DNA from: Candidatus Daviesbacteria bacterium | Lineage (GTDB): Bacteria > Patescibacteriota > Microgenomatia > Daviesbacterales > UBA10151 | Direction: 5' to 3' | DNA length: 64,000 nt | NCBI GenBank assembly: GCA_016186955.1 | Contig: JACPKP010000003.1 | Span: forward strand, 194,290-258,289 | In this document: piece after piece, positions 62,167 to 63,768 of the stretch | Layout of the letters: the number at the start of each line of letters is the position of its first letter | How positions within the stretch are numbered: position 1 is the stretch's first letter | Position numbers and translations under genes: made by a program | Notes under the pieces: model-generated | The model's database searches: none | What the model was told of the DNA's origin: nothing | Seen by the model: the letters and a program-made list of their open reading frames with translations, nothing else

Positions 62167-63768
62167 ATGACATACTACTTAAAATACCGCCCTCAAACCC
62201 TTGATGAAATTGTTGGCCAAAAACATATCAAGGAACCTTTATACCAGGCTTTTATAAATGACAAGCTTTCCCATGCATACCTGTTTTGCGGCCTGAGGGG
62301 TACGGGTAAAACTTCAACAGCCAGGATTTTAGCCAAGATGGTCAATTGTGAGAGTTCAGAGTCAAGAGTCAAGAGCCAAGAAAAAAGTAGTAACTACCCT
62401 TGTAATAAGTGTGATTCATGCCTGTCCATAACCAATGGTTCAAATATGGATCTTATCGAGATTGATGCTGCTTCAAACCGTGGCATTGATGATATCAGGG
62501 ATTTAAAAGAAAAGATAAAGCTTGTGCCAACTGCGGGTAAAAAAAAGGTCTATATCATTGATGAGGTTCATATGTTGACCCAGGAAGCGTTTAATGCCCT
62601 GCTTAAGACTTTAGAAGAGCCTCCCAACCATGTGATGTTTATTCTGGCTACTACGGAACCTCAAAAAATTCCCCAAACCATCATGTCCAGAGTCCAAAAA
62701 ATGGAGTTTAAACAAGCAGGAACAGAAGATTTAATAGAGCTGTTAGAAAAAGTTGTTAAAAAGGAAAAAATCAGCATTGAAGATGATGCAATCAGGCTAT
62801 TGGCTAAAAAAAGTGACGGTAGTTTCAGGGATGCTTTAAAACTGCTGGAACAATTGGCTGTATCAGGGGGAGTAATTAGCAGCCAGGTGATTGAACAGAG
62901 CCTGTTGACAGGCGGGTTTGAAGATGTAGTCCTGCTTTTGGAGGCAATATCTAAAAAAGATCCCGGAAAATCACTGGCAATTTTATCTAAGCAACTGGAA
63001 AAAGGGATCAATACCAAGGAGTACTTAATCTATATTTTAGATATCCTGCGTTTTATGCTTTTAATCCAACATGGGATAGTGGAGCCGGTAAAAGAAGATT
63101 TAGGCCCTGAAAAGCTGGCAGAGATCCAAAAATTATCAGGGTGGTTTTCCCAACGGGATTTAGTAAATGCGATTAGTTTTTTCCAACAGGCTTTTGAAAA
63201 AATAAAAGTTACCTCCCATCCCGCGTTGCCTTTAGAGATTGCAGTGGTGGAGAGTAGTATGGGAGATCAGAAGCCAGATTCCGTCATTCTCTTAAGCGAG
63301 GGACGAGCGCATCCAGAATCAAACCAGTTGCAGGATTCTGGAGTCATTCCGCCATCGGCGGAATTTCCCAGAATGACGGATATTATCACTCCACCTGGCT
63401 TTTCTGATACTCAAAACTCTGACATGCCCAGGCTGCTGGATAAATGGAGTTATATTCTAGAGACGGTTAAACAGTACAACTATTCCCTGGAAGCGCTTCT
63501 GAAACAGGCCAAGGTTTTAAGCTGTGAGAAGGGGAAGCTCCTGCTAGAGGTGCCTTATTCCTTTCACCAGAGGATTTTGGAATCGCCAAAAAACAGACAG
63601 CTTTTGGAATCAGTCCTGGCTGATGTTTTGGAAAAAGAGGTTAAAGTCAGTTGCATGCTTGGTATCAAACCTGTTAGGATTGAAGAGATCGCCAATGTTG
63701 AATTGGCAGCAGATGATGAGGTGATCAGGATTGCAGCAGAGATTTTCAATTCAGAACCAATCAACTAG
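62167..63768 (+). CDS. dnaX: DNA polymerase III subunit gamma/tau (contains in-frame heptamer tract and repeat-element insertion)
   Basis: GLRGTGKTSTARILAK P-loop, IIDEVHMLT, SRVQKMEF sensor motifs. Confidence 0.9.
   Translation: MTYYLKYRPQTLDEIVGQKHIKEPLYQAFINDKLSHAYLFCGLRGTGKTSTARILAKMVNCESSESRVKSQEKSSNYPCNKCDSCLSITNGSNMDLIEIDAASNRGIDDIRDLKEKIKLVPTAGKKKVYIIDEVHMLTQEAFNALLKTLEEPPNHVMFILATTEPQKIPQTIMSRVQKMEFKQAGTEDLIELLEKVVKKEKISIEDDAIRLLAKKSDGSFRDALKLLEQLAVSGGVISSQVIEQSLLTGGFEDVVLLLEAISKKDPGKSLAILSKQLEKGINTKEYLIYILDILRFMLLIQHGIVEPVKEDLGPEKLAEIQKLSGWFSQRDLVNAISFFQQAFEKIKVTSHPALPLEIAVVESSMGDQKPDSVILLSEGRAHPESNQLQDSGVIPPSAEFPRMTDIITPPGFSDTQNSDMPRLLDKWSYILETVKQYNYSLEALLKQAKVLSCEKGKLLLEVPYSFHQRILESPKNRQLLESVLADVLEKEVKVSCMLGIKPVRIEEIANVELAADDEVIRIAAEIFNSEPIN
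62351..62380. repeat. tandem heptamer (GAGTYMA)x4 in dnaX, in frame (ESSESRVKSQE)
   Basis: gagagttcagagtcaagagtcaagagccaag. Confidence 0.8.
63283..63377. repeat. hairpin/TIR repeat element, type 3 (inside dnaX, in frame)
   Basis: gtcattct...ccagaatc...gattctgg...cattccgccatcggcggaat...agaatgac; TIR gtcattct/agaatgac. Confidence 0.7.

Follow-up and report, generated by a model that had tools for sequence, protein, structure and literature searches.

CGTC-tagged REPs, described by Di Nocera, De Gregorio & Rocco (2013, BMC Genomics 14:522; PMC3733652), carry a tag (CGTC or TGTC) on a stem whose first residues are AT, followed by a short tail, and most of them are arranged as HH dimers that have their tags outermost. 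In families CGTC-1 to -4 the stem measures 8-9 bp and the loop 4-5 nt, intragenic copies are known from replication and repair genes, and dRS3 of Neisseria as well as RPE-4 and RPE-6 of Rickettsia conorii belong to the class, for which neither a transposase nor, in any species, a Y1 gene with flanking CGTC repeats was found (PMC3733652). The NTS consensus, CGTCATTCCCGCGMAVGCGGGAATCYRG, and a degenerate SRM pattern come from Chenal et al. (2025, Nat Commun 16:2388; PMC11893778), where SsnA, a small GIY-YIG nuclease, binds and cuts the NTS as single-stranded DNA only and SRMs flank ssn genes across phyla; NTS inside genes are rare (2% in N. meningitidis), and Ssn has a single demonstrated function, namely to restrict transforming single-stranded DNA at the NTS (PMC11893778). 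Here we describe a palindromic element of ~100 bp carried in frame by the dnaX gene of a 64-kb stretch of DNA (41% G+C) from a Candidatus Daviesbacteria genome (contig JACPKP010000003.1), referred to below as the window, within which copies from the same genome were sought. This element is a pair of CGTC-tagged REP or SRM units, resembling the palindromic elements of Rickettsia, in a replication gene, and it extends the phenomenon to the Patescibacteria, for which full-text literature searches returned no description of these repeats. The novelty is modest and lies in a TCTGG family with structured loops, in the tight bracketing of ssn genes by its units and in repeated hits in dnaX.

The whole element (63280..63380) is made up of two inverted hairpin units whose CGTC tags face outward, and it is closed by a perfect inverted repeat of 11 nt (TCCGTCATTCT, 63280-63290, and AGAATGACGGA, 63370-63380). 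The initial annotation had reported a 95-bp segment with shorter inverted termini (GTCATTCT, 63283-63290, and AGAATGAC, 63370-63377) and two internal palindromes, all of which are present, the termini being parts of the longer 11-nt repeat. The first internal palindrome pairs CCAGAATC (63313-63320) with GATTCTGG (63334-63341), the second ATTCCGCC (63346-63353) with GGCGGAAT (63357-63364), and the overall plan is GTCATTCT..CCAGAATC, a 13-nt spacer and then GATTCTGG..CCAGAATGAC. The left unit, CGTCATTCTCTTAAGCGAGGGACGAGCGCATCCAGAATC (63282..63320, plus strand), is of the TAAG..GCATCC subtype, and its own outer stem is weakened to 5 bp because CT stands at 63291-63292 where the family has GG; in the predicted fold, the left unit does not close on itself, and its end pairs with the beginning of the right unit. 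The spacer, AAACCAGTTGCAG (63321..63333), compares with spacers of 1 to ~52 nt in the pairs of relatives. The right unit (63334..63378, minus strand) reads CGTCATTCTGGGAAATTCCGCCGATGGCGGAATGACTCCAGAATC on its own strand, has a 7-bp outer stem and belongs to a GATTCTGGAGTC..CCCAGAATGAC subtype also present in the comparison loci L027, L026, L095, L064 and L015. It contains an inner stem-loop, GTCATTCCGCC-ATC-GGCGGAAT (63343..63364, plus strand; 8-bp stem, 63346-63353 with 63357-63364), which is NTS-like, yet its palindrome is followed by T and not by C, and the nested hairpin is better read as the inner stem-loop of this copy beside the conserved AGTC of the unit. As RNA the element folds at -42.6 kcal/mol (z = -4.2), a stability reached by none of 200 shuffles, and as single-stranded DNA the two strands give z = -5.4 and -5.7 against shuffles. 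No Rfam family matched the window at the gathering threshold or the element at E <= 10.

The host gene, dnaX (62167..63768, plus strand; 533 aa; Pfam DNA_pol3_delta2, DNAX_ATPase_lid and DNA_pol3_gamma3), encodes the gamma/tau subunit of DNA polymerase III, and an identical protein from a Candidatus Daviesbacteria bacterium is annotated as that subunit. The open reading frame (ORF) is intact and translates the element as ...S VILLSEGRAHPESNQLQDSGVIPPSAEFPRMT D..., residues 373-404 (~32 extra residues), in agreement with the initial annotation, which had placed an in-frame palindromic insertion in the DnaX linker; three of the six reading frames through the element are open. The AlphaFold2 model shows no secondary structure over residues 369-416 and gives them pLDDT values below 50, with confident domains on both sides, and in 30 homologues the linker that separates LPLEIAVVES from DKW.YILE cannot be aligned and ranges in length from ~15 to ~100 aa. 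The nearest DnaX among 5.8 billion proteins (P0002, locus L001) is 65% identical and lies in the same gene order as in the window, tig-rpsU-yqeY-ybeY-dnaX, while its linker is unrelated. No significant remnant of the element was found in P0002 or L001, where local alignment yields at best a 9-mer, with a score that 115 of 1000 shuffles attain, and the SNQ.Q match to P0002 was rejected as a remnant on that ground. Conservation of the element in DnaX orthologues, which the initial annotation had named as a refuting observation, is thus not what the comparison returned. Judged by these comparisons, the element is an insertion and not ancestral sequence, because the closest orthologue is without it and the linker is hypervariable.

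Nine DnaX proteins out of the nearest 120, counting that of the window itself, have signature peptides of such units. Another Daviesbacteria dnaX carries a pair in a loop of the N-terminal ATPase domain (L064, 3099-3199), and a further dnaX has one in the linker (L128, protein P0010; 2590-2702), with other unit subtypes and a 52-nt spacer. The L064 pair is independent of the window's copy. Domain III ends with VVES, and from there the L128 pair is 10 residues and the window's pair 9 residues away, in the same frame and with similar flanks, so that these two may mark either one shared old site or two separate hits.

Compared with CGTC-tagged REPs, the element and its relatives share the unpaired (C/T)GTC tag, the AT start of the stem, the short tail, the arrangement as HH dimers with a spacer, and in-frame genic copies that encode ~20-30 aa, notably in replication and repair genes. 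In the dnaX element the CGTC tag stands at 63282-63285 in the left unit and at 63378-63375 of the minus strand in the right unit, both units read GTC-AT-TCT..AGA-AT-C, and the tags are at both outer ends, as they are in the other pairs. The differences are an outer stem, ATTCTGG, of 7 bp rather than the 8-9 bp of families 1-4, loops of 3 to ~50 nt, often with an inner stem-loop, rather than 4-5 nt, and a host in the Patescibacteria (CPR), outside the five phyla listed in PMC3733652. The hairpins of the window in fmt, topA and intergenic positions do have 8-bp stems and loops of 4-5 nt. With the SRM search pattern, HGTCWYN(0-2)YYVSBRHN(0-5)WNVSBRGN(0-2)RNCYNB, six hairpins were found in the window against 0.18 expected, one of them inside topA (31417-31444), and several window hairpins are almost identical to the Neisseria NTS. 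Both outer dnaX units (GTC..AATC) keep the positions reported to matter most for cutting and binding by Ssn, a GTC before the palindrome and a C directly behind it, whereas the inner hairpin has T after its palindrome. The likeness to NTS-ssnA-NTS extends to small GIY-YIG genes of relatives that are flanked on both sides by units; unlike the NTS, most units here are in genes, the window holds no ssn gene and the dnaX units do not match the published pattern.

Throughout the window the hairpins form one unit class (YGTCAT, stem, loop, stem, ATC), all starting with (C/T)GTCAT and ending in ..ATC. Type one (GTCATTCCCGCGAAAGCGGGAATC) and type two (GTCATCCCGGACTTGATCCGGGATC) occur singly or as inverted pairs at 4115-4186, 31382-31443, 51015-51078, 59815-59838 and 61678-61740, and the third type has the stem ATTCTGG/CCAGAAT. 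The 10-mer CCAGAATGAC is found four times against 0.17 expected (9099-9108 on the minus strand, 9200-9209, 31455-31464 and 63368-63377), GTCATTCY 11 times against 3.5 expected, and perfect 11-mer inverted pairs within 120 nt 16 times against 3.9 in Markov simulations (maximum 11). About 60% of the window's units lie inside genes. A relative of the dnaX element in the window is a 111-nt pair (9099..9209) that has inverted termini of 12 nt, GTCATTCTGGAA and TTCCAGAATGAC, and is read in frame in a Wzy_C and TPR membrane protein (ORF 7613..10030, minus strand); it makes up codons 274-311, inside the Wzy_C match (O-antigen ligase-like) and not in fmt, and the right unit of L052, when reverse-complemented, closely resembles its left unit. 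Alignment of the interior of the dnaX element with this pair beats all of 500 interior shuffles, so that the distinctness of a third variant, as the initial annotation had called it, was overstated. The fmt pair (4115..4186; 72 nt) combines two hairpin types, GTCATCCTCGAC.. and ..GCGGGAATGAC, in frame over codons 270-293 (ORF 4022..4993, minus strand), and the topA composite (31382..31464) contains GTCATCCTCGACTTGATCGAGGATC, GGATTCCCGCCTTCGCGGGAATGAC and a lone CCAGAATGAC end, in frame over codons 429-456 (ORF 30097..32286, plus strand). Four genes of the window therefore read through such elements, namely fmt, the Wzy_C/TPR gene, topA and dnaX, one more than the three named initially. Other copies, which had been anticipated, exist as related elements in the window and in other genomes, and no second full copy of the dnaX element is present in the window. 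As to a shared target motif, for which the initial annotation had proposed a test, no direct repeat that could be a target-site duplication flanks any window copy, and the sole flank preference is a pyrimidine (C or T) at position -1, found in 92% of 129 family units.

Outside genes, a pair with the same two hairpin types as the fmt pair lies at 51015..51078 and another between yqeY and ybeY, two genes upstream of dnaX (61678..61740). A near-identical 22-mer, AAATTGACAAACTGAATATAAT, with perfect TTGACA-N-TATAAT-like boxes, occurs twice in intergenic positions and in inverted orientation (61641-61662 and 47566-47587), one copy preceding the hairpin pair upstream of ybeY-dnaX. A single NTS-type hairpin, GTCATTCCCGCGCAAGCGGGAATC, stands at the start of tig (59815..59838, minus strand); in the form GTCATTCCCGCGC(A/G)(A/G)GCGGGAATC it is found directly upstream of tig both there and in L001 (104-127, minus strand). 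With its position conserved between genomes whose DnaX is just 65% identical, this hairpin is possibly functional or very old.

Both topA and dnaX also hold insertions of a different kind that derive from repeats. In-frame tandem heptamers lie in the N-terminal loop of DnaX (62348-62380, reading ESSESRVKSQEKS) and in topA (30762-30794 and 30446-30478), the heptamer types across these sites being (AGAGTCA)n and (AAAGTCA)n. Two Daviesbacteria DnaX proteins (P0048 and P0050) have SQE(P/S)RVKSQ in the same N-terminal loop as the window's heptamers.

A scan of 185,579 species genomes with the pattern GTCATTCT[SK]-N60-90-CCAGAATGAC returned at least 119 loci. Most of those listed follow the plan GTCATTCTGG, a variable and often self-pairing loop, CCAGAATC, a spacer, GATTCTGG, a loop and CCAGAATGAC, with the simple TCTGG unit reading GTCATTCTGGCTTGTCCAGAATC. 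Among the matches listed, this plan was found in several Daviesbacteria as well as in Curtiss-, Roizman-, Gottesman-, Howlett-, Magasanik- and Saccharibacteria, and GC-rich versions in metagenome-assembled genomes (MAGs) of Betaproteobacteria look genuine; one Cytophagia MAG and a few others carry an unrelated long-hairpin family that shares the ten terminal bases, and some loci, such as those in Treponema, Allobaculum and Lachnospiraceae, look like chance matches within genes. The best external match among those listed, L027 7131-7215 from Daviesbacteria, is identical at 69 of 85 positions and has the same subtypes in the same order. The left unit is ~87% identical, by eye, to GTCATTCTGGCAAGCGAGGAACGAGCGCGTCCAGAATC in the Roizmanbacteria loci L021 and L115, and with the termini removed an interior 27-mer still matches these two loci at 92.6% identity (E = 1.6e-4). 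By these alignments the dnaX element is a genuine member of the family.

In the fetched Patescibacteria loci, pairs are in frame in genes for an ATP-dependent DNA ligase, NusA, MurB, an AMP-binding enzyme, two UvrD/AddA-like helicase-nucleases, a DUF2298 membrane protein and an HhH-GPD glycosylase. The unit peptides recur because not all frames are usable: the left end is read as VIL., RHSG or.SFW, and the right end as.RMT or QND or, in its remaining frame, into a stop (CCA GAA TGA). Intragenic copies made up 13 of 47 among Patescibacteria-labelled records and 1 of 18 among the others, by hand counts from record titles, a difference that is not significant (Fisher p = 0.09). Labels of the form TPA_asm "uncultured Gammaproteobacteria" are unreliable (L129, CAYUPO010000001.1, and L029, L034, L043, L045, L086, L106, L112, L116 and L118), and some of these MAGs are probably Patescibacteria. 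One DnaX homologue, the Daviesbacteria-like P0021, is 56% identical to the window's DnaX. A scan of viral contigs with the family termini gave no matches.

All ORFs of the fetched loci were searched with phmmer, which identified Ssn-like genes in loci from Daviesbacteria, Curtissbacteria, Saccharibacteria and Howlettbacteria; three further ssn-like genes were fetched via their proteins, and the proteins of relatives were assigned by Pfam PF01541. All six ssn-like GIY-YIG genes examined (L091/L121, L023, L028, L129, L130 and L131) have TCTGG units on both sides, the tags pointing away from the gene. The Howlettbacteria match (L062), which is weaker, more distant and without a flanking TCTGG unit, is not one of the six. 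In each of the six modules a TCTGG unit points inward from upstream and a simple unit, GATTCTGGACAAGCCAGAATGAC, lies just after the stop codon or overlaps it; the upstream units of L121 and L131 belong to the TAAG..GCATCC subtype, as does the left unit in dnaX. In the Daviesbacteria genome examined, the ssn-like gene is single-copy. The unit-ssn-unit modules measure ~370 bp and the gene-less pairs ~90-110 bp, with the same termini, and the pairs look like deletion derivatives of the module because the same units bracket the ssn genes. One module is located between gatA and gatB (L130 1001-1438) and another between two DUF1246/DUF1297 genes (L129 1001-1315); in both, the called ssn ORF extends into the downstream hairpin units, with the tail ..DSGQARMT...

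Three further classes of repeats invite comparison. Like the Rickettsia palindromic elements (RPEs; Ogata et al. 2000; reviewed in PMC10969869), the palindromic repeats here are in frame in functional, unrelated housekeeping genes, are translated, and are tolerated in surface or linker regions; RPE-1, however, is ~150 bp long and of another sequence family, the likeness to RPEs being one of description and the link through RPE-4 and RPE-6 coming from the literature, and the host here is a free or episymbiotic CPR bacterium rather than an alphaproteobacterial endosymbiont. With the REPINs of the RAYT system (Bertels & Rainey 2011; PMC3116915) the pairs have in common two inverted units with a spacer, a single-copy gene flanked by the units and many gene-less copies. 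They differ in the tag, CGTC here and GTAG there, and in the associated enzyme, a GIY-YIG nuclease here and a Y1 HUH transposase there, and REPINs are essentially extragenic. Like bacterial MITEs (for instance Correia/NEMIS, Nezha or ERIC), the pairs are small, non-coding and multi-copy, have terminal inverted repeats, share termini with a gene-bearing element and are occasionally in frame in genes; unlike MITEs, they show no target-site duplication, and the partner gene is not a recognised transposase.

Taken as a whole, the evidence is probably best explained by a decaying, non-coding CGTC-tagged HH dimer that was inserted as DNA, a gene-less derivative of the unit-ssn-unit module with an Ssn-like enzyme as its likely mover. 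The repeat pair would have entered the dnaX coding sequence as DNA, and the surviving copy would be one that keeps the frame open and falls in the disordered, length-tolerant linker between domain III and the C-terminal domain; because the frame is open and the linker is of this kind, the element would simply be translated as ~32 residues, an addition that may be neutral for DnaX. The gene-less pairs would relate to the unit-ssn-unit module as MITEs do to insertion sequences and REPINs to their RAYT genes. The single-domain, Ssn-like GIY-YIG nuclease of the module may mobilise the units, acting on hairpins extruded in single-stranded DNA, so that movement would proceed through single-stranded DNA and this genome would be expected to carry an ssn gene. 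A wider proposal is that TCTGG pairs are non-autonomous elements, that GIY-YIG nucleases of the Ssn family are the mobilising enzymes of CGTC-tagged REPs, a counterpart of the RAYT/REPIN system, and that in the gene-dense Patescibacteria the repeats land mostly in genes, as raw material for linkers and loops of essential proteins and repeatedly in dnaX; this we put forward tentatively, as a possibility that we would sooner doubt than accept.

Several results weigh against this account. The Pfam map of the 64-kb window contains no ssn or other GIY-YIG gene, and Ssn has been shown just to cut single-stranded DNA, never to transpose (PMC11893778). The dnaX stems (5 and 7 bp) and loops (24 and 28 nt) are outside the sizes of families CGTC-1 to -4, and the SRM pattern has no match at 63280-63380; it does not match the TCTGG units, whose loops are longer. 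No near-identical copy of this heterodimer was found in the collections searched. Two metagenome scans whose pattern was the right unit including the nested GTCATTCC hairpin gave zero matches each, and a search of the peptides from the three open frames of the element against 5.8 billion proteins gave a single word-sharing candidate and none that scored, a weak null given that the source protein itself likewise went unscored. The left stem is degenerate, and the dnaX copy is therefore probably old and immobile or inert. Neither a target-site duplication nor an empty site was found, so the exact boundaries of the insertion are uncertain, and they are made more so by the recognisable lengths of the element (95, 97 or 101 nt), none of which is a multiple of three; across copies the lengths modulo 3 are mixed and follow no rule.

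Other explanations differ chiefly in how the pair came to be where it is. The units may not transpose at all and may instead be spread or renewed by recombination, gene conversion or template switching at the hairpins, the link to ssn reflecting the cutting of incoming single-stranded DNA. This would accord with the one role demonstrated for Ssn, the restriction of transforming single-stranded DNA at the NTS, with the DprA encoded in the window and with the lack of target-site duplications, and the window and L128 dnaX pairs, of differing subtypes at nearly the same position and frame, would fit the replacement of units at one old site. We nevertheless consider it unlikely, since copies with clean family termini are found at many unrelated sites, in genes whose orthologues are without them, and since the positions of the unit-ssn-unit modules among unrelated genes, as in L130 between gatA and gatB, look like insertion. 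Slightly less probable still is that the same pair was mobilised by a Y1 (HUH) REP-associated tyrosine transposase (RAYT) rather than by a GIY-YIG nuclease. The window does encode a RAYT-like protein (53426-54097, plus strand), and two inverted units with a spacer are the architecture of a REPIN (PMC3116915, PMC3337134); yet this gene is flanked by repeats of its own, GGGTGGGAAGC, and not by GTCAT units, its NCBIfam score of 47 bits is below the curated cutoff of 80 bits, a CGTC-flanked Y1 transposase gene was found in no species by Di Nocera 2013 (PMC3733652), and the TCTGG units of relatives bracket GIY-YIG genes in six of six cases.

The remaining alternatives concern what the sequence is rather than how it arrived. 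In Escherichia coli, dnaX has a frameshift site and a stimulatory stem-loop just after domain III. The element stands at the corresponding place and folds into a very stable RNA, and dnaX was hit repeatedly in this clade; the hairpin could thus serve dnaX expression, as a frameshift or pause signal that sets the tau/gamma ratio, or its peptide could have been adopted. This is very improbable: neither the closest orthologue nor most of the 120 homologues have the element, the same repeats occur in many unrelated genes, and Rfam gave no match for it. As a frameshift stimulator it was rejected, with no slippery heptamer upstream of the hairpin and a -1 frame that is open through the element, so that a shift would not truncate the protein there. 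Least likely of all, and effectively refuted, is a chance palindrome in a fast-evolving ancestral linker or an artefact of assembly. Linkers do evolve fast and the source is a metagenome-assembled genome, but the fold z-scores are -4.2 to -5.7, the ORF is intact, and termini and interior match a repeat family present at more than 100 other loci.

The findings touch on two questions left open in past work, that of the mover of CGTC-tagged REPs (Di Nocera et al. 2013) and that of the roles of Ssn outside Neisseria (Chenal et al. 2025). The Patescibacteria loci join both, and the termini shared by module and pairs make the mobilisation hypothesis directly testable in vitro. With little intergenic space, most units come to lie in genes, replication genes among them, and offer a natural catalogue of permissive sites, among them DnaX, TopA, Fmt, NusA, MurB and the ligase. 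For annotation, the repeats explain the recurring peptides VIL..RMT, RHSG..QND, VIPAKAGI and DSRLRGND and the length variation among CPR orthologues.

The RAYT-like gene of the window and its repeats form a second pair of repeat and enzyme, separate from the GTCAT units. The gene (Pfam Y1_Tnp, E = 6e-9; NCBIfam REP_Tyr_transpos; HFH motif) is bracketed by inverted, exact copies of its repeat at 53362-53372 (minus strand) and 54105-54115 (plus strand), with a further copy at 54989-54999, and these repeats adjoin the small hairpins CCCACC-TCCA-GGTGGG and CACCT-TCC-AGGTG. Just upstream, 52750-53425 is a stretch of ~680 nt without an ORF of at least 120 aa, with several hairpins and a tRNA T-loop-like GGTTCAAATCC near 53105; ARAGORN called no tRNA or tmRNA in it, and Rfam returned nothing, even at E <= 1. 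The DprA gene (25774-26874, plus strand; DNA_processg_A and DprA_WH) is of interest because Ssn and the NTS modulate natural transformation. Finally, a 12-nt periodic, Pro/Thr-rich repeat at 45331-45458 (ORF 43968..45872, plus strand) is the linker between the CBM96 and CBM60 domains of a GH16 glycoside hydrolase.

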